A DNA stretch of 54,194 nucleotides, counting the filler, from Stramenopiles sp. TOSAG23-6 (Eukaryota), in NCBI GenBank assembly GCA_900128565.1. It is 2 parts of 2 records of this genome, joined end to end, with 100 filler letters (N's around TTAATTAATTAA, not from the genome) between each part and the next. Parts side by side here need not be neighbours in the genome. Positions count along the whole stretch, not along the records: positions 1 to 27,236 come from LT635982.1; positions 27,337 to 54,194 come from LT635983.1. The stretch is one strand, 5' to 3'. Position numbers and translations under genes: made by a program. Under the pieces are notes generated by a model, which did no database searches, was not told the DNA's origin, and was given only the letters and a program-made list of their open reading frames with translations. The stretch's first letter is position 1. Each line of letters begins with the position of its first letter. Positions 3 to 40,300 of this stretch are shown in pieces.

Positions 3-101
3 GTATGTTTTATTTTTTTTCAAATTCGAATTTTTTTTTTATAAAAATTTTGTACTTAACAAATTTAAGTTTTTTTTTTCAAATATTTTTCCAAAATACA
101 T
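3..101 (+). other. Family intron at the contig start (GT..AT at 101, or GT..AG at 105)
   Basis: at|gtatgtttt...tgtacttaac...aaatatttttccaaaatac at. The upstream exon is outside the window, so the acceptor is ambiguous. Confidence 0.7.
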
Positions 102-2064
102 ACAGGATCGCGATTATTTATTTGGTGCGTTGTCGCCGTATTTAGCTTTATTTTTGAAACGATCGTTACTGAGTTTGAATGAATTGCAAGTTAGAATTTG
201 GCCAAAACCATTTGAACATAATAAAAGTCCACAGAAGCGTACAAGAATAGTTGATGGAAATGCATGTAGTGAAAAAGCTATTTTGTATTATTCCGATAAA
301 ATGCCAAAAAATGATGATATTAATGCATATGTATTACGTATTATTCAGGAATTACGTAATGTATTTCGTGATAGAGGATTACTACTCGCTGTTGGCAGAG
401 GAATCACTACATCACTAAAATTTTTCACACGTTCTGCTCAAAAGATAATTATATCTACACCTGCAACATTTGAATTAAAGTTAGGTCAGTACAATGATAA
501 TATTAATGTCGATGTGGATGCTTCGCCAAAATTGACTACACAAAAAACACCAAAATTATCACCCGCTAAATATCATAATATTAGTGTTTATAAATCCTTG
601 TATATTGTCTGGAAATCTCTTGATTCATTTTTACTGTCTAAATCAGCACATTCACAACTAAACGATAATTATACTGTATTGCGCAGTTGTATATTACCTG
701 GAATTTTAGCTATTGAAGATCTTATGCGATCAATTCTAAGTCCATATTTTTCCTCGGCCTGTCACGATTTTCGTGGCATACTTTCACAAATGCATTTCGA
801 AAATTTTGGAAAAGGGTCTGGTAAAAAAGTATCGACTTATATGCACAAACTTCAATGGCGATTGGAACAATTTACAAAAATGTATTTGAATCCATTAGTT
901 TTACAGGATTTATTTGTAAAAAGCTCTGTTGGTGGTGGACAGTATGATGATGAAATATTGGGAGTTATGACACAACAATTATGTCAGCGTGTTGTTGTAG
1001 ACTTTATTAGAAATATTTCCTTGATTAGACCTTTATCTGAAGAAGGCAGGCTAAAATTGACTTGTGATTTAGCACAAATGGAACTGTCTCTTGGTCCATT
1101 AGTTGCAATATTATGTCATACTGGTATTCATAAAGGCAATAATTGTACTACAACTACTACACGGACAAATAATAACATGGAAAATCTTCAAACTCGAACA
1201 AATAATCAAAAAAAACATTCAATTAATGAAATTCTTGGTTCAGATATTTATGAAGAATTACGTGCATTTAGACCGTTATTGTTTCTAGATTCAAAAGATA
1301 TATCAAAAAATAATACAGAATTGTACAAATTACGCCCGAGTGTTTTTTGGCATCATCTTTTGGCTCGTTCTCCACCACAGCTTCAATTTCCATTTGAGTT
1401 TGATGTACGTTTTCTTTCTTTGTTTTTTCTGTTTTCTTTTATTTCTTTTATTTTTTCTCTTTCTTTTTTTTTACTTTTTCGTTTTGTCAAAAGGTTTTTT
1501 TTTTGTTTTGTCAAAAGATTTTTATTATAACATTTTTTTTTTCTTCAATATTTTCTCAAAATACATAATTCTACACAAGCAGCTTACATTAATTGGATGG
1601 AACAAGAAGGTAGAACACGGGCGTTGTCACTAGAAAATGGAAAAGCAGCAAATTTACATAGAAAAATCACTACTATTTCAACTGATTGTCATCAAATGAA
1701 ATCTGAAACTAAAAATTTATGTCATTTTGAAATGGCTCATTTGATTGCAGTTAAACCAATGAGTGTAGAATCTAGAGAACTTGTACGTTTTCATCATGAA
1801 TTTNATTTTTTTTTNTNTTTTTGTATGAAAATTTCGTACCTAACGAATTTCAATGTTTTGAAATATTTTTTCATAATACTTGAAGCGATTGTTAATGCAA
1901 AATTGAAACAGTGTCTCGATACGTATGCTAATAGAGTAAGTGCATCTCCAACTGATTCATTATGCGAAGAATATCAAATACTTTTGAAAGTAGGAAGAGA
2001 AATCTATGAAACATTTTACAGAACAATTTCTCTAAGAATGAAAAGAAGAATGAAAGATTTGTAA
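102..2064 (+). CDS. COG5: Conserved oligomeric Golgi complex subunit 5, 5'-truncated; exons ~102-1404, 1567-1782, 1882-2064
   Basis: COG5-like C-terminal motifs FIRNISLIRPLSEEGRLKLTCDLAQMEL, YEELRAFRPLLF and PPQLQFP. Removing the introns joins ...FEFD|NSTQAAYINWME and ...SREL|EAIVNAKL in frame. Confidence 0.85.
1405..1566 (+). other. Non-canonical intron GT..AT (162 nt, T-rich expanded)
   Basis: gat|gtacgtttt...aatattttctcaaaatacat|aat. Contains an in-frame stop; the nearby downstream AGs are out of frame. Confidence 0.8.
1783..1881 (+). other. Non-canonical intron GT..TT (99 nt, in frame)
   Basis: ctt|gtacgttttcatcatg...tcgtacctaac...aaatattttttcataatactt|gaa. Confidence 0.8.
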
Positions 2065-2333
2065 ATGTTTTTTTCTTAAGAATGAAAAGGGTGGCGAGAA
2101 TAGAAAGGAGGATGATCTGAAGAATAGTAAGGACATCTGTTTTTATATTTTCTGTGTTTCTCTTTTTATATTTTCTGTGTTTGAAGAATATAAAAAAATA
2201 AGTAAAGAATAACCAAAGAAGTCTTTCAAATCTTTCAACTTTTTCAATTATGTAACAAAATTGTACGCAAAATAGAGTATGACCCTAGTACTGTAGTAGG
2301 CATTGTGAGTTTTCAGACTTGATGATGAAATCA

Positions 2334-2894
2334 TTACATCAAAATCATCTTGAAGAACCACAAACTTAAAAGTAACAAAGTGAAGACAAATATAGGATAA
2401 CCAAGTATTTGAAAGTGTCCATCAAAATTTGGCTTCAACGATTCTGGCCTGAGAAGTTGTTTAACCTTAGTAGAGAGTCCATCGTCCGTTGGTTGAAGTA
2501 TCTTTGAATCATCAGTGCTGGGTTTTGAAACATTAGTGCTAGGTTTTGAAACATTAGTGTTGGATTTTGAATCATTAGTGTTGCTAGGTTCCAAGGCCAA
2601 TTTTCCAACATTGGATGACTCATCTGAATCATGGACAACCATTGGACCTGTAAACGTTGGCGAGGTATCTGGATCGTTTATATGTAAAGCCTTTTTTATT
2701 TTAAGTAATGAATCCGTCGTGTGACGATGTTTTGGCCATACAGATGTTTGATTTTTCTTTTTTGCCTTTTTGTTTGTTACCTTTTTCCTCCGTCTTCTCC
2801 TCCGCCTTGTCCTTGCTCTTTTCCCCATCATTCCCATAGAAACATTTACCATCGAAAACAATAACAATGATAGTATAACAAAACGTAGTACCAT
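2334..2894 (-). CDS. Hypothetical membrane protein with signal peptide, basic patch, S/T repeats and C-terminal TM helix
   Basis: 186-aa ATG ORF with hydrophobic N- and C-termini and SKPSTNV repeats. Confidence 0.65.
   Translation of the reverse strand: MVLRFVILSLLLFSMVNVSMGMMGKRARTRRRRRRRKKVTNKKAKKKNQTSVWPKHRHTTDSLLKIKKALHINDPDTSPTFTGPMVVHDSDESSNVGKLALEPSNTNDSKSNTNVSKPSTNVSKPSTDDSKILQPTDDGLSTKVKQLLRPESLKPNFDGHFQILGYPIFVFTLLLLSLWFFKMILM
2513..2580. repeat. About 3 x 21-bp coding tandem repeat
   Basis: cattagtgctaggttttgaaa-like units encoding SKPSTNV/SKSNTNV on the minus strand. Confidence 0.7.
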
Positions 2895-3098
2895 TTTTCA
2901 CGTATTGGGTTGTTCAATAAATAAAATAGATAAATGAGAGATGGAGGTGGACCTACCGTAGCTACTACGTAAAGTATTCGCAAAAAATAGCAAATAAATT
3001 TTCGAAATTTTGGCCAAATGTCAAATGTTAAGTCAAATTTTGAGTAGGACTACCTCTTGAGCTCTCTTGTCCTCGATAACAAAAAAGAAAAAAGAAGA

Positions 3099-3943
3099 AT
3101 GAAAAATACAATGGATCTTCAAAGTGTTAAAAAAGTAGATAAAACAATAAGTCGTGCAAAATATGATGGACTTATTTTTGGAGCATTTATAATTGTAGCA
3201 CTCGCTAGTGTCGTTTCATACCTTATATTTTCGAAAGATAATCGACGAGAAACAACTTCTTTTGCTGACTGCCACTTCATTTCTTATACTGATGTGTCTA
3301 CTGGACGCGTGTCTCCTGAAGACGTGAAACATTTTACTATCGCAAGAGATGAGTTCCGCAAGACGGCTAGCAGACCAGTTGTGGCAGTCGAATATTGCCA
3401 CTCTGCTCTTTTAGAAAGTCGTTACGAAGCTAAAAAGGAAGAGTTGAAAAGAGATCATCAGTCAACTGAAGAAGAATGGGTTTGGCACGGAACCTCAACA
3501 AAAGAAAACATCTCGTCAATATTTACAAATGGATTTAGGGAACCAAAAAGTCGCTTTCGTGACAAGAATGGAGATGGAAAAGATCAAACATTAAAATACG
3601 GTGCAGCAATGTACGTTTTTTTTTTCAAACTCGATTTATTTTTTCGTACGAAATTTTGTACCTAACGAAAAAAATTTCAAATATTTTTCCAAAATACATA
3701 TACTTTACAACGCATACACTGAGAGCCATTGAGAAATATAGCGGAACAAATAGCCTTATTTTATCAAAATTACTTTTTGGGAATCGTGGGTACAATACCT
3801 ATGGTACAACTCAGGATGACAAGGAATATGATACATGGCTAGCAGAACCTACAGAAATTCCATTGGAGTTTGAATTTCGACGATTTTTCAGAATGGTAAA
3901 GTACAAAGATTTAGTATTGCCAGTGTATGTGGTTCATTATTAA
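3099..3943 (+). CDS. Membrane-anchored PARP/ART catalytic-domain protein; exons 3099-3610, 3700-3943 (251 aa)
   Basis: N-terminal TM helix. WHGT...IFTNGF motif, spliced YGAA|IYFT (cf. PARP YGxGIYF), and C-terminal VLPVYVVHY. Confidence 0.8.
3611..3699 (+). other. Non-canonical intron GT..AT (89 nt)
   Basis: gcaat|gtacgtttt...cgtacgaaattttgtacctaac...atatttttccaaaatacat|atac. This junction restores the IYF motif; the in-frame AG 24 nt further on would delete it. Confidence 0.85.
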
Positions 3944-4207: not shown

Positions 4208-4840
4208 ATGTCCAATTTATCATACGACGACCTGAACGCACAGCTGGAAAAGACCACGGATGCAGAAGAAATTACAAGAATTATGCAGCTAATGAAGCCT
4301 CTGAGGGAGGATTACTACGCTAAGCTTAAAGAAAGTGCGAATCGGGAGCCGACGTTAGGGCCAGAATTGACTGCGATGCACGCGAAAGCCGATGAAATTA
4401 CTGCTGCTGGTGAGGTCTTACGTCCGGTATTGAAAGTAAAACACGCGAAATTGAATGAGCTCGAAGCAGAAATGAAGAAGCAATACGTTCTCATATTTGA
4501 TTATCATAACCAGTTTAGAAATCTACTGTTCACAGGGAAAGGGCTTATTATGGAAACTGCTAACCAAATTCCTGAAACCCCAGATGATTCGAAATTGACG
4601 ACGAAAGCAGAGGAACTTGAGGCGTGGAGAAAGTTCGGTGAAGAAATGGAGGAGACGGAGGCAGGTTTTAAAAAAGCTGTCTCCTCACTGGATGCTATAA
4701 AAAACTCACCTGAATGGATTTCACTAGAGGAAAAAATGAAAGCAGCAAAGAAAATAAAAAATGAATGTCATGCAGAGGCAATGAAGGTACATGCTGAAAT
4801 CACTGCAGCGTATGGGAATTTTGGTGATGTTCTCAACTAG
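4208..4840 (+). CDS. Hypothetical coiled-coil protein (210 aa)
   Basis: Intronless ATG ORF, helical and E/K/A-rich. Confidence 0.7.
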   Translation: MSNLSYDDLNAQLEKTTDAEEITRIMQLMKPLREDYYAKLKESANREPTLGPELTAMHAKADEITAAGEVLRPVLKVKHAKLNELEAEMKKQYVLIFDYHNQFRNLLFTGKGLIMETANQIPETPDDSKLTTKAEELEAWRKFGEEMEETEAGFKKAVSSLDAIKNSPEWISLEEKMKAAKKIKNECHAEAMKVHAEITAAYGNFGDVLN

Positions 4841-4890: not shown

Positions 4891-4993
4891 GATGACGTGA
4901 AATATTCAAAAATTTGAATTTTCTTAGGTACAAAATTTCGTACGAAATGAAATAAATTCGAAATTCAACGTTGAGGTGAAACGATGACGTGAA
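4891..4993 (-). repeat. Intergenic degenerate copy of the intron-family element, bounded by 11-bp direct repeats
   Basis: Minus strand reads ttcgtacgaaattttgtacctaag...aatattt. gatgacgtgaa occurs at 4891-4901 and 4983-4993. Confidence 0.7.
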
Positions 4994-5147: not shown

Positions 5148-5172
5148 CGCCGCGAACCGGGATCGAACCAGT

Positions 5173-5219
<47 letters not shown>

Positions 5220-5220
5220 T
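5148..5220 (-). tRNA. tRNA-Phe(GAA)
   Basis: Minus strand ACCGCGATAGCTCAGTTGGGAGAGCGTCAGACTGAAGATCTGAAGGTCACTGGTTCGATCCCGGTTCGCGGCG folds as a cloverleaf with a GAA anticodon (73 nt). Confidence 0.93.
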
Positions 5221-5371: not shown

Positions 5372-7218
5372 TTAATTACGTTTTTTATTGTGTAATGTCT
5401 TCATTCCAAATAAATTTGGTTTCAAATCTTTAGTTTTTTTCAAAAGTGTAAGTTGAATAAATGAATGAGTTGCATCAATTGTTTGTTGTATTACTTGAAG
5501 GGGATCTGCATAGCCTGCTTGTTTTGTTATTTTAGATAATATGTGAGGAAACCACAAAGGAACATCGCATATCAAAATTTTGTATAATATGTCAAAATTA
5601 AAAAAATATTAGCATTGCATATCCAAATGAAAAATATAAAAAAAAAAAAATATTACAAAAAAAAAGTATTACAAAAGATTAAAAAAAAAAATTAAAATGT
5701 AAAAATATTAAAAAAATACCCACGCATGTTGTGTACCCGGTAATACAGAGAGAATCGTATTTGTGCTATTATTCATTAGACGAAGAGTACATTCTTTATA
5801 AAAACGCAAATCAGGCCATGGTTCTGATAGTACAATAAATGTTGCTTTATCCTTCATCCCAGTATCAAGAATTGAAGTTTTCAGACATTCTGTCCCTATA
5901 ATTTGTGAAAGTTTTTTCGTAAAAAAATCGTTAGGTACAAAATTTGGTACGAAAAAAAAAATTTGAAATTCAAAAAAATTAAAACATACATGGATCATAA
6001 AGCACACAAGCAGAAAATATAGATTGTAGTTCTTGTGTTGCACATATAGCTGTAGCAGCACCAAAACTATGCCCACACATGATTAATTTTGAACTATCGA
6101 TACTCTGTAACAGATTATTAAGAAAAAACTTTTCTTTATTGAATTCATCCTCAATTTCATCTCCATTATTGTCTACAACGCCGACTGTATTTGTGAAAAA
6201 ATATTTTGTCTTGGTCCATTGAAAAAAACATTAGCTAGTACTAGGTGTGAAATTTCATACTAAAAAAAAATCATACTAAAAACAAAAATCATTGGATTAA
6301 ATGTAAAATTTGAAAAGAAAACAAAGAAAACAAAGAAAACAAAAATCAAAAATCAAAAAGAAAAGAAAACAAGAAAAACAAAATAAAAAAAAAATTAAAA
6401 AAAAAAAATAAAAAAAAAAACATACCTCTTGATGAATCTTTTTCTTGAAGAATTTCGCAAATACGGCTTATTTCTTTCACTCTATGTTGAAGCATTTTAC
6501 CTCGAAACTCTCTTAAAATGGAGAGATATTTTGGATATCCTTTTTTTTTTTTCATTTGGTGTTAGTTCTCTTGGAGGTTGATAGCCATGTATTGTGGAAA
6601 AATATTTTTTTTTGTACAATTTGTTAGGTACAAAATTTCGTACGAAAAAAAAACTAAATTCGAAATTCAAAACATAAAACATACATGGACGACACCATTT
6701 TCAGTTTTACAATAAGAAGCGGAGCCACACTCATGCTCTAGAATGATTGCAATATACCCCTTCTTTACAAAGTAGCTTGCCATAACAGAATGGATGTCGC
6801 AGTTTCCGTATAAACCATGTGAAAATACAACGACTGGGTATTTTTCATTTTCTGGTGGTTGGAGAATTGGTGGAGAATGATTGGAATCTTTTTTTGTAGT
6901 AAAACATGGACTTACAGCTTTACCAAGTCCGAAAAAACGAAATATATACTGAGACTTACCAACTGACTTTGCTAAATGCTCTAGTACGCCATTGCGCATG
7001 TAAGGGTAAGAGGTATACTCGTCGGAAGAATGTCTTGCGATAGGATAATAAATTTGCGCACAACATGACTTTGTAAATCGAACGCGAACAGCTCCAGTCT
7101 CTACCCCACTTTCCGTTGTCAACGATGTCGACAACCTTGGATATCGGTTATAAATACCAAGACCTAGGACTCCAATGCCAAGAGCCGTCATTCCTTTCAC
7201 CATTGATCCATTATTCAT
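5372..7218 (-). CDS. PAF-acetylhydrolase-like alpha/beta hydrolase; exons 7218-6685, 6586-6426, 6184-5990, 5895-5720, 5572-5372; one extra A in the 6541-6552 run
   Basis: YPVVVFSHGL, GHSFGAAT nucleophile motif, LYDP|W and PGTQHAW. Spliced length is 1267 nt (422 codons + 1). Confidence 0.85.
5573..5719 (-). other. Probable non-canonical intron GT..TG (147 nt, degenerate)
   Basis: tgg|gtatttttt...atacaaaattttg|ata gives HAW|ICDVP. There is no nearby AG; the exact acceptor is uncertain by multiples of 3. Confidence 0.55.
5896..5989 (-). other. Family intron GT..AG (94 nt)
   Basis: ccat|gtatg...gtacctaac...ttcacaaattatag|gg restores D-P-W. Confidence 0.85.
6185..6425 (-). other. Family intron GT..AG (241 nt)
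   Basis: agag|gtatgtttt...cacctag...aaaatattttttcacaaatacag|tc; the frame continues to GHSFG. Confidence 0.85.
6587..6684 (-). other. Non-canonical intron GT..AT (98 nt)
   Basis: cat|gtatgtttt...cgtacgaaattttgtacctaac...atatttttccacaatacat|ggc gives VVH|GYQ. Confidence 0.85.
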
Positions 7219-7444: not shown

Positions 7445-8777
7445 ATGACATCAACGTATACTGGTTATCAAGGATTTACACCAAATGCATATCGAAGAAC
7501 AGAAACTGAAAAGATAGCAAGCACTCAAGATCAGCGTGATAAAAAGTTTCGGCAAAATGGTGCCAAGGTTCTTGAGACAACAGCAGGATTTCAGACAACA
7601 ACAGCAAACTCTCAAAGCAATGTCAAACGTGAGCACTATGTTGCTGCTCTGGCTCGACCTTTGAACCCGCTCAAGGCAAAGGATCGCAAAGGGTTTTCAA
7701 CTAAAGAGTTTGTTCATAGTTCTTCGTATTCATCAACGTTTCCGAATTTTGTGCAGCAGTTGCTTGACTTAGAAGGTCCATCTGAACAAGAATATCGAGC
7801 AGCTTTTAAAAAGGTTGATGCAGATAATAGCGGCACAATCTGTGCAAAGGAGGTGTCCCTTCTCATTCGGCATTGTACAGGAAAAGTTCCAAATCCTCGA
7901 GTTGTAGATACATTTATGGTATTTTTTGATCGAAACGGTGACGGTAAAATTTCTTGGGATGAATTTGTTGACGCTCTTGGTCGCGTGGAAGCTCATATGA
8001 AACGTGAATTATCGTCAAAAAAAGACGGTACACTTTTCGGTAAAGATCCCCCGCGTAGTAATAAAGTTTTACCAACTCCATTACCAAAAACAAGCAATCA
8101 AACTGATTTGGGTTGTGCTGGAGAAGACCCAAGAAGTCGCTCAAAAGCTACAGGTTCGTTTCACTATGAATTTCTAAGATTGATTAGTCATATACTATTT
8201 ATAATTCTATATTTAACAAATTCAAAATTATACAACATATTTTCACAAAATCCAGGGAGTGATCTCTCTCAAGGGACTACAAAAGTAACCAACCATATTG
8301 CTGGGTATAGTGGACACATATCAACATATACACCTAATATTGGAGAAAATGTACGAGGTAACAAAAACGATCAAATGATTGTTGAGACATATAATGTGTA
8401 AGTTTTTATTATATATATGTCTGAGTGTTTGTATAACAAAGAAACGGCCGAATTGGTGCATTGGTGTATTTTTGTATCATCTACGTTTCATCGTGAATTT
8501 GAATTGTATTGTTCAAATATATTCATTTTTACTAGAAAATTCTGTACCTAATAAATTTCAAACGAAATATATTTTTCAACAATACATGAATCCTCCAGGC
8601 TATTCAGGAATTAAAAATTCAAATCCTCAAGGTATGGGTAATTTATCTACTGATAAGTCAAGAATTGATCGTTTAGTCGAAGACATGTGGAGAGAGCGAA
8701 ATGCTGGTAAAGGTAGTGTGCTCTCCGAAACTACACAAATGCTGAAACCATTCGTACCAAATTTTGAAGATCAATAA
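7445..8777 (+). CDS. EF-hand protein with (P)GYxG repeats, resembling ciliary microtubule-inner proteins; exons 7445-8153, 8256-8397, 8588-8777 (346 aa)
   Basis: EF loops DADNSGTI and DRNGDGKI; YTGYQGF, IAGYSGH and PPGYSG motifs. Confidence 0.75.
8154..8255 (+). other. Family intron GT..AG (102 nt, in frame)
   Basis: acag|gttcgtttcactatgaattt...tttaac...atattttcacaaaatccag|gg. Confidence 0.75.
8398..8587 (+). other. Non-canonical intron GT..AT (190 nt) with an internal decayed donor at 8481
   Basis: gt|gtaagttt...tctgtacctaat...atatatttttcaacaatacat|g gives YNV|NPPGY. Confidence 0.7.
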
Positions 8778-15042: not shown

Positions 15043-17608
15043 ATGAAGGTTCTTTTAGTTGATGCGTTCTCTAAAAGTGCAAAGGGACGATCACAGTTCA
15101 AGCAATTTTATGAAATTACTCGACAGTGCTTTGAACGAGCTTCCGAGGGAGTTCAACCGAATTATGTGGTTCGTTCATTTAGAAATTTAAAGGATTACAT
15201 ATATGAAGCCGATACCGAGTTTATGAACCCTCGTGCGTATCGTAATTTCGACTCCGTTGATTTTATAATTGTTGACGGGAATGCAAATTTAAGACCATGG
15301 ACACGTCAGGTCCGACAGTTATTGTTGCTATTCAAAATGGCAGTAATGACCCAAAAATGTTGTTTCCTTGCATCAGTAGGTTTTCAAACTCTTGTCCATT
15401 TATTCGCGACATCAGGAGTTAAATTAGAAATTCTCAATGGACCTGTCGGCGGACGCACAGAGGACCTGTCGTTTACAAAACCAGTGGTACGTGATAAAAA
15501 CGCTGTCATGTCACAGCCACTCCCTGTTTTTCTCGATAATAAAACTGGGGATTTGTTTTTTTATAGACCAAATAAGAAAGCATGGTGTGCTTGTTCTAAT
15601 GTTGGTATGCGTCTTGAAAGTGCTGCTGAAAGAAAGCGTGCGTTTTCATCATGAATTTCAAGTTTATTTTAAATTTATTTTTTGTACCAAATTTTGTACC
15701 TAACAATTTTTTGTAAGGAAAAAAAAATATTTTTCACAATATATGTGTGTATAGACCACAGTACCAGGTACACAAGGAAGTAGACGGACCTTACATGTCC
15801 AAGCCCACGTCTGAAACCGTTTGTATTATTCATATGAAATATGTACAACATTTCATATTCCGAAATATTCGAACTCATCGATTTGTTATTCCTCAACAAA
15901 ATAAATGGGTTGTTAATGAATCGGTTAACTCGCTGTCTTTTGCAAATTATAAACTTCTTGCAGATAATTCTAGGGAACCTCAAATTATCGAATATCAAAA
16001 CATACTTGGGATACAACCAAATATTCAAAATAGAAGTAAATATCCAGAAGTAGCACAGATGCTTGAAAACTATATTAATCATCTATATACACAGATGCGT
16101 CATAAGGATCATATTGATTCGCGTATAACGTCAACCAGTTGGGAATCTTTTGTAAATCAATTTTCAAGAAATCGAAACAAAGGAAAAATGAAAAGACCAG
16201 AAAGTAAAAGTATGTTTAATCAAATTCCGAAGCTAAATCAAAAGGAATTATCACCATCCATTGACACAATTGACGATGAAGATAGCTTTACGTTGTCAGG
16301 TTTGTCTTGTAGCAGTTCATTTGTAGATGCAAAGGAAAGAAATGTTAGACGAACTCAAAGCGCAACAGTTCGTTCGACACCAACAAATCGAAATTCTTCT
16401 AATCTACATAGTGGCCGCATCAATTATAAACAAAAATCAAATCTTAGCAGGAGACCTGAATCTGCTATGCCTCGGAGTTCTGGGTTTAGATCATCTCTAA
16501 AGGCCAAGGATCGACTTTTTAAACGTCGAAATTCTTTCAGTGTTGGAATTAGTAAAAAACAAGCTGTTGCGACATCTAATAATGGAATACGGAAAAGGTC
16601 AGCTGCAGAGGAAGAAAAAAAGAGGCTTGCAATTCAAGATCGAAGAAACATGCTTGGCGATTCGTTTACAATGACACCAGCAACTATACCAAAACTAGTA
16701 CCCTCCACAATTCCATCATCGCCAATGAGGGGATCAGGAATGGCAGCTGCAAAACGGCGTGTGAAAACAGCATCATTGGTCCGTCCAAAAGTTCAAGGAA
16801 ATAGATTTACACGCCGTGTCAATAGTGCTCGCCCTAGGAGTCGTTCTACTATATCGATTGCCTCCAATAAAGAGGCATTGAAACTAAATGAGACGCTTGA
16901 AGAAGAAACAAACAAAAAAGTGGTAACTAATAGATCTGATGTGTCTAAGCAATTTGTTGACTCCACCGGATCTGAACCTCTCTCCTCCAATACCAACTCC
17001 CAATCAAACAATTTTGATTCAAATAATAACGATTCAAAAATGAAAACTAAGGTCAAAGTAAAAGTACAAAAGAGAAGAACAAATCAACACGATACTCACC
17101 CTAAAAAACAATGGATGAATAAAATAGAAAATGATCGAAATAAAAGAGCAGGCAAAGTCAAAGTTGTGCGTACCAAAAAAAAAGTACCATTTTGTGCATT
17201 TGCTAAGCATTCGCGCAGAGAGAAAAGAGATCGACTTATTCCCGGATATGGCAATGGATGCGTCGTAACAGCATCAGGGCCTTATATGTCATATCATGAT
17301 CGAAAGATGCATGTATGTGTTCGTCCTTTTAATTTTAGTTTTTGTTTTCCAAAACATTTTGCGCACCTAACAGAATCATTAATTTTTTAAAATATTTTTT
17401 CATAATACAGGAGAGTAAAATTAGTAAAACTAAATGGATAGGAACCCGTAACTTTACTGCAGTAGTGGGTAAAGCTACAACAAACGATATTCCATGGTCT
17501 GGTTTTGTACGATGCAGTGGTCCTTATCGAGATGGAGTTGTGCAATTTAGAGATTTTTCAGGAGAAAAACTTAAAGCTGATCCATTGAAAAGACGCGGTT
17601 GGCAGTGA
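15043..17608 (+). CDS. Hypothetical protein with an N-terminal class-I-glutamine-amidotransferase-like fold and a low-complexity basic C-terminus; exons 15043-15637, 15745-17312, 17411-17608 (786 aa)
   Basis: MKVLLVDAF start, DFIIVDG and FLASVGFQTL; spliced length 2361 nt is divisible by 3. Confidence 0.7.
15638..15744 (+). other. Non-canonical intron GT..AT (107 nt)
   Basis: aagc|gtgcgttttcatcatg...gtaccaaattttgtacctaac...aatatttttcacaatatat|gt; the first downstream AGs are out of frame. Confidence 0.75.
17313..17410 (+). other. Family intron GT..AG (98 nt)
   Basis: cat|gtatgtg...cacctaac...aatattttttcataatacag|gag. Confidence 0.85.
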
Positions 17609-22361: not shown

Positions 22362-23881
22362 TTAAATATGTTTTTTTATTACTTTAATTAGTCGTTTAGC
22401 TCCTATCATAATATTTTCCCGTGATAACCAAGCAAAACTCAGTCTTATATATATCAAGGGAGTACCAATTGGAAATTCGTTAGGTGCTACATTTGGTAAA
22501 CATTTAACATTCCTTTTCAAACAACTCTTTATTGAACACTCTTGTGCAGTAAGTAGACTAATATTATTTTTCTCTAACGACTCCTTGAAAATCTTTTCAA
22601 TATCATTCTCTTTGCAGAGTTTTAGTCCCACCCACAAAAAGTAACCACCACGAGGTGGAGTAAATGTGATAACGTGTTCAGGTATTTCAGCTTGAACTGC
22701 TTCATTTTTCAAGGTATCGCATAAAGTATCGCAATTACGCTGAAGATATTGGCTGACAAAAGTAATGTGCCGCCTAATATCACCATTAGAAAGGGCAATT
22801 TCACATAAAGATGATATAAACCCACACATTAAACCACCAGAAGCCTCATAACCAATTTCCCCACTTTTTCCGCTCTGAAAGCACATGTATTGTGAAAAAA
22901 ATATTGAAGAAAAAAATCGTTAGATACAAAATTTCGTACAAAAAAATAAATAAATTTAAAATTCATGGTGAAAAAAACGCACATTTCTGATGATTTCGTT
23001 TGAATCCAGCCGAGCCGAATTCCAGGACTTAATATCTTGGAAAACGATCCCAAACTAAATACAGAATAAGGTTCATAATCAAGTAGAGCAAATGGTGGAG
23101 GTATTTCTTTACATGTTTTGTTTTCTGTATAGTTTTTTTCTACTTGAAAAAAAGAGTCAAATGAGAGAAATTGATAAACCTCATCTGCAATAATGGAAAA
23201 CTTAAAACGCTTTGAGAGATGAATAAGTTTCTTTCTACGATATATGGACATGGTTACACCAGTTGGGTTATGATGTATTGGAATGGTATAAATGCATTGT
23301 ACGCAATTATTTTCTCCCAATTCGAGCAACCTTTTCTCCAATAATTCAACACACACACCTTCATTGTCACATTCAATGCTTTCAATTCTAATTCCTGGAA
23401 AATTCCTAAGAATTTTTTCCACTAAAAAATAAGTTGGATCTTCGACAAATACAATTGGACATAATTCTGATGTGTGGGAATTCAAACCACCACCTACTTT
23501 TGGAGATGTATTAGTTGGAAATACGAAAGTCTTCACAGCAAATCGTAAAAGAAAATCGATGCCAAAAGACGCTCCTGGGATAATATACAGTTCATCTGGA
23601 GCAACTTGTTCATCACACTCATGAAAGTTAAAACTATTGATGAACTTTGAAAGAGCTATACGGAAACCTGCCTTATCCGTTTTCTTTAGGTATGAAGAGT
23701 ATCCAAGAATAGTAGTGGCAGCATCAGGAGTTTCAAGATTTATTTGACTTGTTAACGCAGAAACAGCAGATTTATTGATAATTTGAAGAGCCATTGCTAA
23801 GTGATTTGGAGCAGGTGAACCCTTTTTGAAATTAATTGTGTTATCAAGGTGTGCTTTGCGTATTTCTGGGATTGAAGCCAT
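22362..23881 (-). CDS. PLP-dependent class I/II aminotransferase (Aro8/2-aminoadipate type); exons 23881-22983, 22884-22362 (473 aa)
   Basis: VEDPTYF, HHNPTG, IIADEVY, GSFSKILSPGIRLGW, PRGGYFLW and IRLSFA. Confidence 0.92.
22885..22982 (-). other. Non-canonical intron GT..AT (98 nt)
   Basis: gaaat|gtgcgtttt...gtacgaaattttgtatctaac...atattttttcacaatacat|gtgc. An in-frame AG exists 12 nt downstream but would skip a nearer CAG. Confidence 0.75.
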
Positions 23882-27336: not shown

Positions 27337-27391
27337 AAAGTAAAGTAAAGTAAAGTAAAGTAAAGTAAAGTAAAGTAAAGTAAAGTAAAGT
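27337..27391. repeat. (AAAGT)n microsatellite inside a helicase intron at the contig end; mirrored at 54140-54194
   Basis: 11 pentamer units starting a few bases downstream of the donor ctt|gtatg at 27402 (minus strand). Confidence 0.9.
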
Positions 27392-27402
27392 GGACAACAT
27401 AC

Positions 27403-28626
27403 AAGGTTAAAAATGTTTCTATTCATAAGGTCTAAAAGTCTTCCAGGTGTAGCTATAACTATCTAAGTTGGTAGAAAATATGTAAAATAACAAAACATGT
27501 GAGTATTTGTACTATTTTCGAAAAAGTAGATAATGAGATGATTTCAAAGAAAGAAGAATAATAATAGTACGGAATGTGGTGAAAAAAAAATAATAAAATT
27601 TTGAATCTCAGAAGTAGAAAATGACGTCATCTTAGGGATACCAACACTGACATGGTTTTGCATCCCAAACTATAATCAGACATACGCTCGTCAAAGTGTG
27701 TTCAAATTTCCTCATAGATTTTACAAAATTATTATATTTTCAGTCGCAGAGTGACAAATGACAAATTCGAAATTGAAAATGTTTTTGCACCCATTTTATA
27801 CCTAAAGAAATAAAAAAAATAAAAAAAAATAAAAAAAATAAAAAACATAAAAATGAAATTCAAAATCTATAACACTTACCTCTGCACCACGTTGCATACT
27901 TCGAATCTGAGGTGCTTTATTTGCACCACCATATAATAGACAAGACCGCAAAGAGTGAACATATTTTTTTGGTGTCAACTTCATCGCTTCTTCTTTAATT
28001 TGCACGGCTAATTCTCTAGTAGGAACTAAGATCAAAGCTATGGGCCCAGTGTCTCCTTGTTTTGATGATTTGACTTTCATTTGTGCCTGGACATGTATCA
28101 TTGCTGGCAATAGAAATGCGGCTGTCTTACCAGATCCAGTCTGAGCTAAACCTACTACATTTTTGCCTTGTAGAGTAACTGGCCAAGACTGACTTTGAAT
28201 TGACGTCGGTGCTTTATACCCAAGGCTCAATAATTTCTCGACATATACACGAGGTAATGAACTACGTTTAAATCCCTTTACCGGGGCAGGTACACAACCA
28301 CTCACCCAAGCTTTGCTATTTGGAAACGGAGAGCCGTGCTCTGTTACTGTGAGATTCATTTTTGCTCGGAGAGAAGTGACCTCAGACTCACTGAGTTTAG
28401 CAACTTTACTATGTTCTGTATAAAAATCCCGGCGAAAGTCAGTCAAGGTTCGTTTTGACCAATCGATAGCAGGAAGTTCGATGGTACCACCACCTTTTCT
28501 TTGTTGCAAACAACCCGTGGAACTATAATTCACAAAACCCTTTTGTTTTAAGTCCGCGAGGCGACATTTTTTAGACGAACCTGAACCAGTCTCAGACGAA
28601 TACTTCCTTTTCGTAGCATTGGTCAT
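27403..28626 (-). CDS. DEAD-box RNA helicase, DBP2/DDX5-like, 3'-truncated; exons 28626-27880, 27462-27403
   Basis: PTSIQSQSWP, AQTGSGKT, PTRELA, and spliced GAE|IVIATPGRLLD across a canonical 417-nt GT..AG intron (27879-27463). Confidence 0.9.
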
Positions 28627-28955
28627 TTTCTACAATGAAAGAAAAGAAATATAGCAATAATGTGCCTTACTTGATACAGTGCTATGTAATCAAATGTCTA
28701 ACACAGTTCTCTAGGAAAGTGTCCGTAATCAAGTGGCTAGCTACAATATTACCTGTAGTAAAAAGTAGGAAGAAGTAAAGAACTCAAGTCAATTGTCAAA
28801 GACGCGCTGAATTTCTGCGATACGTACCCGGTACCCTATAAGAGCCAGCGAAAAAATTGAATACTTGACCATCAAACAATCTAATTCCGAAGGATTAGGT
28901 ATCTCCTGAACGAGCTTCTTCTCTTATCATTTGTAGATCCGGGAAAATATTTAGG

Positions 28956-31900
28956 ATGGACCCAACTTTTCAGACTCTTCTTACAGGTTTATGTAGCCCA
29001 GATAATGTTACGCGTGGTCAAGCAGAGAAGCAATATTTTAATTCTGTCTCTACGAACTCAACAGAAGTGCTTCAGCAGCTTTTGCTTGGACTTCAGTGTC
29101 CATCACCACAAGCTCGCGCTTTTTGTTCTGTTCTTGTGCGCCAAATGGTAAAAAAGGCATGGATATCGTTAGATGATGGCGCACGTGCTTTCACGAAAAA
29201 TGCCCTATTGGTTGCAATGGAATCAGAGGCTACTGAGCATATTCAAACCAAGTTAAGCCACGCCATTGCAGCTGTTGCATCTTTTGCACTTGAGGGTTGG
29301 CCAGAGCTTATTCCTCGAGTGCTTAACATGACATGTTCAGAATCTATCGGTGCCAGACGTAGTGCTATAAATCTATGTAGTGCATTAGCACTATCTTGTG
29401 AAAGTGCAGCAATATTACCTCATTATGAAAAATTTTGTTCAATGCTGGGGGCAAGGCTGAGTGATCCGGATGCTAAAGTTCGTAGCTACACTGTTCAAAC
29501 ATTTGCTTCATTGATACTTGCATTGGAAAAGGAACAATGGGTACCACTTCAACAAATGTTTCCTGCTTTATTGAGTGCGATACAGTTTACCCTTGTTGCT
29601 GGAGAAGAGCAAGTGGCAACAAGTGCGTTGGAGTCCCTGGCAGACACATGTGAAAATGCGCCAGCTTTTTTTAGACTTCCAACAATCTCCCTCCCTCTGT
29701 GCAACTCAATGCTTTCTATACTAAATCATCCTGATCCAGACCATTTCGAAGCAGCTACAAGGTCATCTGCATTAGAGATGTTAGTTGCATTTTGTACGGA
29801 ATGCAGTTCAACAGTTGTACGTTTCCATCATTTCAATTTCGAATTTATTTTTTTTTTCATAGAAAATTTTGTACCTAACGATTTTTTTTACTAACAAAAA
29901 AAAAAAAAAAATATTTTTCACAATACTTCGTCGTTTAGATTCGAATGGTGCCAAAGGAATTTCTGGTTTGAGCTTAATTGACGAAATAATTTTTTCTGGT
30001 TTAAAAATGCTCTGTCGTGTAAGTGAAGACGATGACGAGGAATGGGGTTCTTCTATTGACCGGTCACCATTTGGTTGTGCAGAAACCGATAATGAGGCCT
30101 GGGTTGCTGGAAGTGCTCTTGAACGATTATCCGAAAATCTCGGTGGTGCCGCAGTTGTTCCTAGGTTAATGCCTCATATTTCTTCAATGTTGAATAGTAA
30201 TAGATGGCAAGAAAAATGGGCAGGGACTATGGGACTTGCAGTATGCTGTGCATCGCCAATGTGGTCCTCAATTAGTTCAATATTTGATGTTTTATTGCCT
30301 CTTCTTGAGCAATCCCAACCTGAAGGTTCTCCTGGAGAGCGCGTTCGTTTTGCAATTGCATACTTGATTGGTATTTTTTGTGAATATTTCACTGGAACAG
30401 AAGTGGACAACACTGGCCACGGACGTGTGGCAAATCAACAACTAAAGGCACAGATTGCTATGGGTGGTCCAAAACCTGGAGAAAGTTTTCAAGTTGTGCA
30501 TGGTAAACGCGTTTTATCAATATTGGCAAAAGTTTTGGATATAAAAGAATCCACTTCTCGAGTACAAGCTGAAGCTGCATATACATTATGTGTATTTTGC
30601 ACTGCTCAACAAGCATTACCTGTCGGAGCAGTACAAATTATTTCATCTGTGGCACCTCGAGTACTTAGCGCCTTACATGATTTACTCCGTATGAGCTCTT
30701 GTATTGCAGCTCAACAATATGCAATCACGGCGGTTGCAAGCATTGCCCAGGTACTTGGTGAAGATTTTGGTCACTTTTATAGTACATTTATGCCCCTAAT
30801 GAAATTTGTACTTAAAGGAGCTACGGGAAAAGAGCAAAGATTACTGCGCGGCAAGGCTATGGAATGCGTTGGTATTTTGGGATCCTGTGTTGGTGCTGAA
30901 GTGTGTACGTTTTCGTCGTTTATTTCAAATTTATTTTTTTTTCATACGAAATTTTGTACTTAACAAAATCTCCATTTTTTTTTACATTTCTTTTCACGAT
31001 ACATTTGCCATTGATGCAAAAGAGGTGATGGATATTTTACTCGCAACTCTTCAACATGGTATTGCTCCTGATGACCCTCAGGCATCGTATATAGCACAAA
31101 CATGTTGTCGTATAGGAAAGACGATGGGATCACAATTTGTACCGTATTTACCTCTTGTTTTACCGTCTTTGCTAAATGCTGCTGCCAATGCAGATAAAGA
31201 TGTATTAGTTCACCAAGACAGTACAGAAGAACTTGATAAAGAACTATTTGAAGGTCGCGAGATTATGGAAGTTATTGTTCGTGGGGCAGGTAAACAGAGA
31301 ATAGGTATTAACACTGCTGCAATTCAAGAAAAGTCATTAGCTTGTAATATGTTGTATGAATATGCGATGGCAATGGGTGGGTTATATGCTCCATGGGTTG
31401 AAAAAACTGTTGGTGTCTTGCTGCCTTTGGTGTCGTTTCAATTCTCTGGACATGTTCGCGTCGCTGCAGCGATGTCTTTACCAAAACTTCTTTTATCCCT
31501 TTTGGAAAATCCTTCGACAAAAACGTCAAATGGTCCTCAACAATTGTTTATAGTTGCTGTGAATGCTATAGTGAACCAATTAAAGGTTGAACAAGAAGTC
31601 GAATTAATTGTTTGTCTCCATGAGAGCCTTGATGAAATGTTACAACATGCTGCCAATGAAAATGGAGTACAATTGTTTCTCACAGATGCAGTAATACTCA
31701 TGATATTTGAAGTAATTTCAACTAATTGTATTGCAAGTATAAAACGACGAATCAATGCATGTCGTGCTTTGCGAATGGGTGATGCTGAAGCTGATGATGT
31801 TGCATTTATACAGTTAGAAGAGGAAGAAGAATTAGAGGGTGATTTACTTAATACTACAATTGATGTAATCGGTGCGTTAGCTAAGTTGATGAAGGGGAAG

Positions 31901-32790
31901 ATTTTTAATGCATTTAGTCAACATTTTGGACAATTACTTATGGCAATGCTTCATATGATAGATCACAATTCTACGGACACGTTTTTTGCTACTGATGCCT
32001 CGACAGTTGCTAGCGATTCAATTCGTTCTGGATTAGCTACTGCGGCTCTTTGCATTGCTGATGATATTATTGAATATTGCATGCCTGGGGCTGCTGTTTT
32101 AGTTCCATCTGTAGTCCCTTATATGTTGAATGGTGCTAATAGTCCTGATCCAGAATTACGCCAATCAGCTGTTTATGGTTTAGGTGTTTGCGCAGAACGT
32201 GGAGGTTCTGCATTTACACCTGCACAAGCTACCGAGGCATCTTCTAGACTTGTCGCTGTTGTGACTGCCCCAAATGCTCGAGAGGGTGACAATGCATGTG
32301 CATCGGACAATGCAATCACTGCGGTTGCAAAACTGTTCTTACATCGTGGTACTACGGTACGTTTTCATCATCAATCTCAAATTATTTTTTTTTATAACAA
32401 AGTTTTAACCTAACAATTTATTTTTGAAAATATTTTCCTACAATGTATGCCGGAGGAGACGGGTCGATAAATACTGAACAATTATTCAAATGCTGGATGA
32501 ATTACCTTCCTGTGAGGGACGACATTGAAGAAGGCGAAAAGATGCATTCTTTACTTGTTTCTTTAGCATTGAAAGGAGATGGTCGTGTTCTTGGTACAAA
32601 TATGTGTAATTTATCTCGGTTTTGTGAAATTCTTGCGGAGGCCGTACAAGCTGAACTTATCGATGAGGTCACTCATGTTCGTATTTCAGCTTTATTTACT
32701 AATTTACAATCCACTCCATCTACCAGTGCATGTTTTAGCAAGGCATGGGCTAGTGTCAATCCAGTTCACCAGAAATTGTTAATGAATTAA
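28956..32790 (+). CDS. IPO5: Importin-5 (karyopherin beta-3/Kap121); exons 28956-29816, 29929-30904, 31005-32356, 32449-32790 (1176 aa)
   Basis: RLLRGKAMECV, DDPQASY, FVPYLPLVLP, GINTAAIQEKSLAC and RQSAVYGLG motifs; spliced length 3531 nt is in frame. Confidence 0.92.
29817..29928 (+). other. Non-canonical intron GT..TT (112 nt); duplicate at 51603-51714 (-)
   Basis: gtt|gtacgtttccatc...gtacctaac...atatttttcacaatactt|cgt gives CSSTV|RRL; nearby AGs are out of frame. Confidence 0.85.
30905..31004 (+). other. Non-canonical intron GT..AT (100 nt); duplicate at 50527-50626 (-)
   Basis: gtgt|gtacgtttt...gtacttaac...ttttcacgatacat|ttgcc gives GAEVFAIDAKEVM; the first downstream AG would create TAG. 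Confidence 0.85.
32357..32448 (+). other. Non-canonical intron GT..AT (92 nt)
   Basis: acg|gtacgttttcatc...aacctaac...aaaatattttcctacaatgtat|gcc; nearby AGs are out of frame. Confidence 0.75.
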
Positions 32791-36742: not shown

Positions 36743-36821
36743 CCGGTATCGGAACGTTTTTTTTGTACGCGTAACTGTTTAATTTACGATATAACCCAGT
36801 TTAGATATTGATATCATCAAA

Positions 36822-37280
36822 ATGGTAAGCGTAGAGGATACAGAATTACTTTGGGCCGAAGTTACCCAGATTGTCCAACGTAGTATCCAGCAATCATTAA
36901 ATTCAGTCGTGTATAGTCAAAATAATTTAGATGCATACACAAACAAGTGTATAGAAGGAATATTGACAGATTTACGCGAAGAAAAAAAGCCATTTAAATT
37001 TGCCGTCACAGTAATTCTTTCGCAAAAAGTGGGTGCTGGTCTAGTAACTTCAGGAACGTTTTATTGGGATCCTGAAACAGATGGGTGTTGTAAGATTACA
37101 TGGGAAAACGCAGAGCTCCAAGCTGTTATCACCGTATTTGCAATTTGTACTGAGCCTTTTGCAGAACATAGACCATCACGTAAAGATGTTTTGAAAATAT
37201 CTCTAAACCGTGACAATCCTGAAATAGCAAATAATTTTAGTAGTACGAATGAAACCAGCGATACAAGATTAAATCTATAA
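36822..37280 (+). CDS. Tctex-1 family dynein light chain
   Basis: KPFKFAVTVILSQKVGAGL...FYWDPETDG...WEN...VITVFAI. Confidence 0.9.
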   Translation: MVSVEDTELLWAEVTQIVQRSIQQSLNSVVYSQNNLDAYTNKCIEGILTDLREEKKPFKFAVTVILSQKVGAGLVTSGTFYWDPETDGCCKITWENAELQAVITVFAICTEPFAEHRPSRKDVLKISLNRDNPEIANNFSSTNETSDTRLNL

Positions 37281-37317
37281 TAAATTTGAAAAAGAAAGAT
37301 TTTTAGAATTATTTATA

Positions 37318-40300
37318 TTAACGTCTTCGCGTTCCCATGTGCATCGAACCTCCTTCGCCATCTTTTTTTTTCACTACTATTTTTGAAGCTTCCGTTCCAT
37401 TAGTTATTGTATGCCGTTCTTTTGTTTCTTCTTCAAGTAGATATTCTTCTTCTTGAGTCTGAGACATGAAATCGAAATGTGGCATTTGGCTGCCTATAGA
37501 TATTTTTTCTCGTAAATCTTTATGCGTCACGGGAAATATTTGAAAGTAAACATCTCCGCTTGCTTTTGCTGCAAGTTCTTCTTCTTCCATATCTAGCGAT
37601 TCATTATTCTTCAAAACAGTTTTTAGCATATCACCTGCTTGCTTCAATGTCTTATGGTATAAAACTTTCGGTACATCTTTTCGTATATTCATACACAATG
37701 TAAATAGAACATAAATAGCAGTAGATCCGTGTGGGTGAATTTCGAGAAGGTTTCGAAATGTGTCGATGGCATTAGACGGTTTTTTGACGAGAAATTCATT
37801 AGCAGTTGAAAATATTTTCAATTTTGGTGCAATACGCTTTCGAAAAAATCGATTATCTTCAGTAACAAAAACAGTTATTAGTTTCTTTAGTCTATCCGCG
37901 TCCCGTTTGACTTTGTCGAGGTCAGCAGGCATCATGTAAAATCGCTTAAATATGGACATTGTTGGCGCGTATAATGCACGAAAATATTTAATAGCAAATC
38001 TCTGAACAGCAATCGCAATTAATTTTTTAAAAAAGTAATCACAGAGCCACCGTTGGTATTCAGTAAATTTTTCATGTAAAGTTTCACAAATCAAATCAAT
38101 GTGATCATCGTTGGTTTCAGTATTTTCATCACGATGACTTCCCCATGACATGAACGTTTCCTTAAATACAGGACTGAGGAATGCGAAGGAGGAATCTAAC
38201 ATAGTAGAAATAGCAATAAGACCGCCCTCAAGAAATAAATGCGTCAAATCATGAAAATCAACTTCAAATTTCAACATAATAGGTTTGAGCGCTGATTGAA
38301 GACTATCTAATTCTTCCATACAAGAAAAACAATCGTTTGCATGAGCTGCTGCAAATCTCTCATCTGTGTTTGGACCCAATATTCTTATTTTTGATGATAT
38401 TGAGCTTTGATATTTATGTAATGTAGAAATGGCTATATGGAGCATTTCAGCAACCAGAGATTCAACTTGTGTCTCTTGTACGACTTTAACGTATTCATAT
38501 ATCAAATTAAATACATCTACAGGTGCCATCGTAAAAATTTGTCCCATTTCATTTGATCTATAAAATTCAGTATTATCCTGATTATCAGTATCTAATAACC
38601 CTTCAACTATTCGCGAAAAAAAATCATCAATCTCAGGCTTGGAGATTGAAGCATAACGAGTAATTAAATTATGGTAATCATCCTCAAGTTCCTCGGGTTG
38701 AATATGTAGCCTCTGTAATATATCAGTTCCACTAACAACATGGTTGAGCACAACATTATATTGTGACATGAAATGTATTAAAGCAATACACTCATCTTGA
38801 TCTAATTGATCTGGTTTTGAACATAAACATTGTATTTGATTCACTAATTGCATGTGGTAATAATTCAAGTAAAACATAAGAACATCAGTACGAGGCTGAC
38901 GTTTGGTATTTGTTTTTCCATCATTATTTCCTTTTACCAGTTTACACTCTCGAGATATCTCATCTAGATCTTCTAACAAACGACCACCAGCAGTTACAAG
39001 CCCAAATACATCTGGTGGTTTTTCTTTTGTAGATATTACTCCTGAAAATATATGTTCAAAACTTTTAAATACTGCCTCAAGTCTTTCTGCAGATGTACTG
39101 ATATCAAATCGCTCAATCCAAGAAATATGTGCTTTTGGACTGTCTAATGATGTTGGACTGTCTAATTTTGGCGGTGTTATTGAAGATTTATTACTTTGTC
39201 GTCCAGTATCTATCTCTAAATGTGTAGAAGGATTCATTGATATTTTCCTTGCCTTTTTTAGTGATTTCAACCATGCTTCCATTTCATGTCGGGTGTGTCC
39301 TTGAAGCCTGAATCCCCATTCGTAACCAAACACATCAATTTGTTTACACCCATCATAACTTTGCGCCCATTTTATCCACCTTACATGCTTTAAATATATC
39401 ATTTTTTGGTATGTTGTATCTGTCGCTGTTTTATATATATATAGAATGGAACCAGTAAGGCGAATAAATCTAATTAACCATTTATGTCCCTTGAAAGTAT
39501 CTTCTGCCCACAATTCAAGATATCCTTCATTAGTATGTTCAATATAATCACCATCTTCATTATTCCCATCGAATTTATCTAAATGTCCTGACGTAGCAAA
39601 TTCCTCACTAACGTTTGCTATAGTTCCATCCTCTGAAAGTTCGGTGCAACCTCGGGACACTAAAGATTTTATCCACTCTTCATACTCAACTTCATTTCTA
39701 GCTTGTGCTTCATATACATGATGATGAGATGAGCCCGATATTTCAAAGGAATTACGCGTAATTCCTATCGCAATCTTAACTTTCATTTCATCCTCTGACT
39801 CGTACATGTTATTATTTAATCGCCATACCAGAGAATTCTTCAATGAGATGCCTGTATTGATACTTTCAGTAGGATCGGGCATAAGTGGATACGAAATTCT
39901 TCGCCCAGCTTTGATATCTGGTCTATTTACAATACTGCTAATACTAGATTCAATATGACCTAAAAACGTCCTTCCGTGCAATGAATTTGAATCCCAAACT
40001 ACCACGTGAAGTACGGCATTAGCAATTTCATATACATCAAATTCAAATTCTTCATTACGCCATACTCCAAGTCCATTTTGAGACACAGTTGTGATATGCG
40101 TAGTTTGTTTTTCAAACTTTTGGTGATGATCGGTATTATTTTCTTCGATGTATTGTGAAAAAATATTTCAAAAAAAAATCGTTAGGTACGAAATTTCGTA
40201 TGAAAAAACAATTAAATTATAAATTCATATAAAACGTACATGAATACTTCAGCAAATACTCTTGGTGGACGATTTGCGTCTAAATGAAGCAATTCTTTAA

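Follow-up and report, generated by a model that had tools for sequence, protein, structure and literature searches.

How can genes be read across inserts that begin like ordinary spliceosomal introns and, in most cases, lack the AG with which such introns end? This question is raised by a stretch of 54,194 nucleotides from Stramenopiles sp. TOSAG23-6 (assembly GCA_900128565.1; two records joined by filler letters), which we refer to as the window in its full length. It is AT-rich, gene-dense eukaryotic DNA (about 30-42% G+C in 2-kb windows), the DNA runs that match it are seawater metagenomes, and an importin exon has its best protein match, at 96% identity, in a public coding sequence (P0002) from a MAST-3 single-cell assembly. 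The source organism belongs to the MAST-3 stramenopiles. We found 17 intron-like inserts in eight unrelated genes of the window, which encode a COG5-like protein (homologues of which carry COG5_N and COG5_C), a weakly PARP-like protein, a PAF-acetylhydrolase-like esterase, an EF-hand protein, a protein of unknown family, a class I/II aminotransferase, an IPO5-like importin and a C2/PH/Sec6 protein. Beyond these 17, no further introns were found in the window, so that the inserts are the dominant intron class there. The reading that we prefer, and whose chances we put at about even, is that these introns would be descendants of a single introner-like element, removed together with one copy of a short duplication by a spliceosome that cuts two nucleotides after AUAC.

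All 17 inserts start with GT, within a 5' motif of the GTRNGT-like kind that is expected of U2-type introns: GTAYGT in 11 cases, and GTGCGT (twice), GTTCGT, GTAAGT, GTATTT and GTATGTG in the others, with GTAYGTTTT as the consensus. They also have the YTRAY branch motif of such introns before a pyrimidine-rich tract, since [CT]TAA[CT] is present in 16 of the 17, at 25-46 nucleotides from the 3' end (usually 34-46, with the value of 25 belonging to the divergent intron 5719-5573), and TATAAC stands in its place in intron 1405-1566. What fails is the AG end: the last dinucleotide is AT in 10 inserts (including 3-101), TT in two and TG in one, and only four end in AG. Common to the inserts is a 3' block, ATATTTT..AATAC, followed by two variable bases, and ATAC stands directly before the last two bases in 13 of the 17. 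The pattern ATATTTTN{2,7}AATAC has 12 matches in the window, whereas 100 shuffles predict 0.19, and every one of the 12 falls at an intron 3' end, one of them being an assembly duplicate. The class is therefore real, well beyond chance. A sequence-only reading of the window had claimed just this, i.e. 17 introns with a shared donor, branch-like motif and 3' block in eight unrelated genes, and all 17 are indeed there, at the 3' ends that it had given; some of the 5' ends were corrected, and intron 3-101, which it had called ambiguous, is scored here as ending in AT though its upstream exon lies outside the window.

The similarity extends well beyond the ends, which is what the earlier reading, correct as it was about shared motifs, had missed: the inserts are copies of one repeat family. 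Thirteen short introns align from end to end, with a consensus of roughly GTAYGTTTTCATCATGAATTTCRAATTT-Tn-CGTACGAAATTTTGTACCTAAC-GA-Tn-GAAATATTTTTTCACAATAC plus two variable bases, and with the profile built from them nhmmer also picks up two longer introns, in their 3' parts, as well as a degenerate intergenic copy at 4902-4968. Thus, as would be expected of introners, similar introns are found in unrelated genes, 15 of the 17 matching one profile (13 of which built it) in eight hosts; introns 1405-1566 and 5719-5573 have only their ends in common with the family. All 16 genic profile hits are in the sense orientation relative to the host gene. Short palindromes lie in the element interior (e.g. 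at 3645-3665 and 6620-6660), three in number: AAATTCGAATTT, GTACGAAATTTCGTAC, which directly precedes the branch motif, and AAAAATATTTTT; they could be transposase binding sites. A metagenome scan with the element core yielded 54 loci, with a true element only in L042, an unrelated public marine contig in which the copy sits inside an open reading frame with the layout AT/GTATGT..CACAATAC/AT/GG, and two pattern scans of viral collections yielded 130 loci and no element. At about 2260-2330 and 1880-2040 (- strand numbering) this contig also has telomere-like repeats of the CCCTAA/TTAGGG type and a threefold tandem repeat of about 58 nucleotides, downstream of the interrupted gene.

A second regularity concerns the two variable bases. 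In 10 of the 17 cases, where 5.4 would be expected, the exon closes with the same dinucleotide as the intron that follows it (permutation P = 0.003); the matches include TT/TT twice and AG/AG twice, and the copy in L042 has AT/AT. In this small sample the repeat between flank and end looks like a target-site duplication of 2 base pairs (bp), as introners would be expected to leave, and the end dinucleotide may vary because it copies that duplication. The sequence-only reading had seen the varying non-AG ends and not that the end usually repeats the last two exon bases. Seven introns have a flank that differs from their end; the 3' copy in these reads AT (4), AG (2) or TG (1), and the 5' copy reads GT, GT, GC, CG, AT, AT or GG. 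Since the 3' copy is restricted to AT, AG and TG while the 5' copy wanders, the former behaves as a constrained splice signal and the latter as coding-like sequence. Canonical introner families, as far as they are described, use GT/GC-AG, often with one splice site made from the duplication.

The mechanism that we envisage on the basis of these regularities would be as follows. A small non-autonomous mobile element of about 90-110 bp would insert into MAST-3 coding exons in sense orientation, leaving a 2-bp target-site duplication that is usually AT, and would bring its own signals, namely a 5' splice site GUAYGUUUU, a branch site YUAAY, a U-rich tract and a terminal block, AUAUUUUUUCACAAUAC. 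The pre-mRNA would be restored by removal of the element and one copy of the duplication, and the element would be tolerated in exons because that removal is exact. By the most likely route, the spliceosome would cut before GU and then at a fixed place two nucleotides past the terminal AUAC, and the intron end would then be the duplicated dinucleotide: mostly AU, sometimes UU, and AG where the target was AG. That the inserts are removed at the level of RNA, that the cut register is GU..AU and that the block serves as a ruler in the second step is what we infer.

We applied a single rule to all inserts, a 5' cut before the GT and a 3' cut two nucleotides after the block. In all 16 introns that can be tested it brings the long frames before and after the insert into one, and shifting the 3' cut by one or two nucleotides in either direction does not. 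Aligning the spliced proteins to their orthologues had been proposed as a check on the sequence-only reading, and ungapped alignments were obtained across the joints at 1566 (of 109 homologue alignments covering this joint, 102 are free of gaps for 8 columns to either side, in the conserved stretch ..ELQxPxxF/xxxxxxYIxW..), at 29928 (against the homologue P0003), at 31004 (VGAEV/FAIDAKEVMD, also against P0003), at 32448 (against P0004, which is only 26% identical), at 8587 (in three of three orthologues) and at 8255, where the closest orthologue (P0006, 57% identity) is ungapped and two others (P0007 and P0008) have gaps 4 to 14 residues upstream, in a variable stretch. Joining at 40148 restores a C2 domain: residue 13 of the downstream exon is where profile positions 33-94 begin, and the rejoined domain aligns to its sister C2 domain. 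At the aminotransferase joint, 22885, coordinates on PDB chains are roughly continuous, within 5-11 residues. Conserved residues had been said to be restored in the COG5-like, importin and PARP-like genes, and the alignments bear this out for the COG5 joint and for GAEV/FAID of the importin, while none confirms YGAAIYF of the PARP-like protein.

Can ordinary acceptors nearby do the same? We looked at the first AG after the branch motif in the 11 AT- or TT-ending introns with a known upstream exon, and it is out of frame in eight of them; in intron 30905-31004 the first AG, at +18, would create a TAG, and that of intron 3611-3699, at +24, would keep the frame at the cost of eight codons. In intron 1405-1566 the next AGs, at +13 and +16, are both out of frame. 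Intron 15638-15744 has an in-frame AG 27 nucleotides upstream of its end and 14 past the branch A. The earlier statement that nearby AGs are mostly out of frame thus holds, with the in-frame cases at 3699 and 15744 as exceptions. Taken with the orthologue fit, this supports the conclusion that exact removal of everything from GT to two nucleotides past the block would be needed for the eight genes to encode intact, orthologue-like proteins, most of the inserts having no usable AG, and makes AG-independent splicing a well-motivated proposal.

The same elements might be cut in another register, AU/GUAYGU..AUAC, i.e. as AT-AC introns for the majority class, an explanation that we consider unlikely although it has several points in its favour. 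Where flank and end are identical, in 10 of the 17, cuts at GT..AT and at AT..AC give the same mRNA; ATAC precedes the final dinucleotide in 13 of the 17 elements; AT-AC is the best-known pair other than GT-AG; and in Blastocystis, another stramenopile, AT-AC accounts for 77% of the minor introns, which number in the hundreds (PMC10639083). The joint 8398/8587 separates the registers, giving Val with the GT..AT cut and Met with the GT..AC cut, and Met is what the closest orthologue (P0006) has, the orthologues having M, H and S there. However, AT-AC cutting would require such disparate 5' ends as AT, TT, AG, GT, GC, CG and GG, and would turn the four plain GT-AG members into AT-AC, AT-AT, AG-AC and AG-CC. 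It would also place the standard 5' splice-site motif GUAYGU two bases inside the intron, with an ATGTAYGT that is unlike the U12-type ATATCCTT. We therefore favour the GU..NN register, as GT starts all 17 inserts inside GUAYGU, the four AG members become ordinary GT-AG introns, and the 3' copy appears constrained.

A transformed minor (U12-like) spliceosome, which would set the 3' cut by its distance from a motif and tolerate non-AG ends, seems to us improbable. Physarum offers the precedent, as the cited part of 10.1101/2020.10.12.336362 describes an expanded U12-type class there, in which the branch motif has changed along with the U12 small nuclear RNA (snRNA) and GT-AT ends are known. By our own comparison GTAYGTTTT fits seven of the nine positions of GTATCCTTT, and the 3' block of the inserts lies at a fixed distance from the cut. 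The Physarum introns in question resemble the inserts in that they can run from GT to AT, their 5' motif is long and rich in T, and distance from a motif determines the 3' cut. In contrast, the RTATCCTT expected at U12-type 5' ends is not what the inserts have, their consensus GTAYGTTTT carrying G rather than C at +5 and T at +6 and lacking the ATCC core. Nor is there a TCCTTRAC at 8-20 nucleotides from the end: the only clear branch-like motifs, TACCTAAC-like, lie 25-46 nucleotides away, with none in the last 20, as against about 10-20 nucleotides for minor introns and about 10 in Physarum. No snRNA genes, minor ones included, were found in the window.

One may also consider that there is no precise removal, the elements being kept or nearby AGs being used, in which case the genes would be damaged copies or pseudogenes, or the short annotated models would be right. 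Public sequences do read into the introns. The importin model P0002 starts at a Met just past the 31004 intron and reads into the 32357 intron up to a stop; it also removes a 45-nucleotide GT..AG piece (about 31917-31961) from an otherwise open and conserved exon, which is probably a spurious intron. The only near-identical public protein (P0005) reads through the first EF-hand intron (8154-8255) and stops in the second; it comes from a Logan contig that may stem from the window's own source sample and that, judging from its length, would be of DNA origin. Protein searches for spliced forms gave, with importin exon 3, only the public unspliced or truncated model and, with EF-hand exon 1, only the read-through protein and distant orthologues; a combined two-exon query of esterase and PARP returned nothing among 267 candidates, a blank that means little as the query was an unorthodox one. 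The in-frame AGs at 3699 and 15744 and the one exon with a frame change (see below) also speak for such an explanation. Obviously, if it were true, eight unrelated genes, COG5 and importin-5 among them, would all be broken, whereas every one of the 16 testable inserts has open frames before and after it and orthologues align without gaps, and use of the first AG would break the frame or create a stop in 9 of the 11 testable AT or TT introns; we regard it as very improbable.

Removal without a spliceosome, by cutting of a terminal helix AU-GUAY/RUAC-AU with a 2-nucleotide stagger followed by ligation, or by ciliate-like excision of DNA, is scarcely credible, for although three of seven whole-element folds pair both ends including the AT repeat, the excised piece would have a 2-nucleotide 3' overhang and end-pairing hairpins have been proposed for Amoebophrya introners (in the part of PMC7789003 cited), the helix has only 5-6 bp in folds no better than shuffles, the spliceosomal GUAYGU and YUAAY motifs are kept in all copies, and both L042 and the Logan contig, the latter possibly from the window's source sample, still have the elements, which argues against removal from DNA. 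Bulge-helix-bulge and IRE1-type motifs were looked for by eye and rejected.

Several observations weigh against descent from one introner and splicing two nucleotides past AUAC. Removal of the inserts is proposed here from reading frames and orthologues rather than from RNA; the two registers, as said, give identical mRNA in 10 of 17 introns; and the duplication statistic comes from 17 cases that are dominated by AT. As regards a mobile origin, the terminal inverted repeat consists only of GTAY/RTAC, plus a loose similarity of the arms, folding of seven whole elements gave z-scores of -2.05 to +0.68, no better than shuffles (in three of them the ends, AT repeat included, are paired over 5-6 bp at minimum energy), no transposase was found among the window proteins, and outside this assembly the element occurs in only one contig, from all the 54 metagenome and 130 viral-collection pattern hits. 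As regards single joints, the exact one at COG5 1881 is without confirmation from homology, only 1 of 15 spanning alignments being ungapped; no alignment covers the PARP joint 3699, where exon 1 weakly matches PARP15/14/10 and exon 2 has no match of solved structure; and esterase exons 4 and 5, which flank the TG-ending intron at 5573, have no PDB match on their own, that intron being a weak member of the class. The in-frame AG upstream of 15744 is possibly a real, ordinary acceptor for that intron, and P0005 does read through an element. Lastly, the exon after 6587 has a frame change: in esterase exon 2, at about 6541-6552 (- strand), a run of 12 A shifts the frame between ..GYQPPRELTPNEKKK and ..GYPKYLSILREFRGKMLQHRV.., and one A fewer would keep it, so that either an error in homopolymer length or a real defect may be responsible.

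Table 1. Introns, element copies and the large duplication in the window, with the flanking dinucleotide and the ends of each insert
Feature	Host gene or location	Positions	Strand	Ends and flank	Remarks
Family intron	COG5-like	3..101	+	5' flank AT, ends ..AAAATAC+AT	AG 4 nucleotides beyond; alignment and nhmmer; cut ambiguous, upstream exon outside window
Intron	COG5-like	1405..1566	+	GT..AT, flank AT	Only terminal motifs common with family; in-frame join
Family intron	COG5-like	1783..1881	+	GT..TT, flank TT	In-frame join; in variable linker
Family intron	PARP-like	3611..3699	+	GT..AT, flank AT	Element without any AG; in-frame join
Degenerate partial element copy	Intergenic	4902..4968	-	Without GTAYGT and ATAC ends	nhmmer E 8.6e-09, model positions 14-82
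Divergent intron	PAF-acetylhydrolase-like esterase	5573..5719	-	GTATTT..TG	In-frame join; missed by family model; exact 3' cut uncertain
Family intron	Esterase	5896..5989	-	GT..AG, 5' flank AT	nhmmer E 3.5e-13; in-frame join
Long intron	Esterase	6185..6425	-	GT..ATAC+AG, flank AG	3' part fits family model, E 0.0012; in-frame join
Family intron	Esterase	6587..6684	-	GT..AT, flank AT	nhmmer E 9e-18; in frame for 29 codons, then shift in A12 run
Family intron	EF-hand	8154..8255	+	GTTCGT..AG, flank AG	
Intron	EF-hand	8398..8587	+	GTAAGT..ATAC+AT, 5' flank GT	
Family intron	Unknown family	15638..15744	+	GTGCGT..ATAT+AT, flank GC	In-frame join
Family intron	Unknown family (same gene)	17313..17410	+	GT..ATAC+AG, 5' flank AT	nhmmer E 1.7e-10; in-frame join
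Family intron	Aminotransferase	22885..22982	-	GTGCGT..AT, flank AT	In-frame join
Family intron	IPO5-like importin	29817..29928	+	GT..TT, flank TT	In-frame join; splits Importin_rep_4 domain
Family intron	Importin	30905..31004	+	GT..AT, 5' flank GT	In-frame join
Family intron	Importin	32357..32448	+	GT..AATGT+AT, 5' flank CG	In-frame join
Family intron	C2/PH/Sec6	40148..40239	-	GT..AT, flank AT	In-frame join, 703/943 codons open; splits C2 domain
Inverted duplicate of 27337-32422		49109..54194	-		Repeats importin introns; 100% identity over 5086 bp

The importin introns within 49109-54194 do not count as independent evidence, as they lie in a 100% identical inverted duplication (Table 1). One copy of it starts at the gap of Ns (27237-27336) and the other ends at the end of the window, and the break lies within importin intron 3; the duplication has the appearance of an amplification or an assembly chimera. 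The degenerate intergenic copy sits between the gene at 4208-4840 and a tRNA-Phe (GAA) gene at 5148-5220 (- strand), the only RNA gene found in the window, and has several TTTCACRTCATC-like repeats on its flanks. At 2500-2590, inside the open frame 2334-2897 (- strand), a unit of about 21 nucleotides (GGTTTTGAAACATTAGTGCTA-like) is repeated in tandem.

How do these inserts compare with known systems? Transposon-derived non-canonical intron systems comparable to them are already described. In Amoebophrya (Syndiniales), non-canonical introner elements have RNA support (PMC7789003), and as in the window, repeated introns have spread as non-autonomous transposons with short direct repeats at their borders and complementary termini, and non-canonical ends defeat ordinary gene predictors (PMC7789003). 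The Amoebophrya elements have direct repeats of 3-5 nucleotides, inverted repeats of 8-20 nucleotides and no clear dinucleotide at either end (PMC7789003), whereas the inserts have a 2-nucleotide repeat, an inverted repeat of only GTAY/RTAC (5-6 bp of end pairing if the direct repeat is included), always a GT with GUAYGU and a branch motif, so that only their 3' end is odd. The lineages also differ, an alveolate in the case of Amoebophrya and a stramenopile here, as does the evidence, since the inserts are read from DNA. In another of the closest known cases, that of Fritillaria borealis and related tunicates, introns are non-canonical at either end and their new 3' ends are bound by duplicated U2AF subunits (PMC13326754); the inserts, in contrast, have a canonical 5' end. 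What sets the inserts apart from both systems is the combination of a canonical 5' site and branch motif with a repeat of only 2 bp, hardly any inverted repeat and a conserved 3' block with a fixed offset of the cut.

Canonical introners of algae, fungi, dinoflagellates and others likewise have similar introns in unrelated genes, target-site duplication, signals borne by the element and retention in sense orientation (PMC12130899; PMC9860276), and a 2-bp duplication turned into a non-AG 3' end is not described for them in the cited part of PMC12130899. The survey reported there kept families with unfamiliar splice sites only if they were supported by transcripts (PMC12130899). Searches of the literature gave no description of non-canonical introns in MAST-3, and term look-ups in the paper that is the source of the MAST assembly and in later MAST papers showed no mention of unusual introns. 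The interpretation that AG-independent splicing would remove these apparently transposon-derived introns is plausible and partly supported by reading frames and orthologues. As for the sequence-only proposal that 3' sites are set by motif and position, it offers a reasonable mechanism, though an inferred one.

Whatever the route of removal, public MAST-3 gene models break at these introns, as P0002 does, and protein sets, completeness estimates and phylogenomic matrices derived from MAST-3 single-cell genomes are likely truncated where such introns occur. If our preferred reading is true, nature would offer, in these inserts, the pairing of a canonical 5' splice site with a 3' end that lacks AG and is placed by position; this would bear directly on how the second splicing step picks its site, and a transposon with a mere 2-bp duplication could make spliceable introns anywhere. 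To the broader claim we give somewhat less than even chances: that MAST-3 has re-tooled 3' splice-site choice genome-wide, with nearly all introns derived from one introner, a spliceosome (or a transformed minor-type one) that cuts at a measured position past AUAC regardless of the final dinucleotide, and GU-AU as the standard. Were it true, GU-AU would be the standard intron type, rather than a rarity, in MAST-3, a globally distributed lineage of marine grazers.

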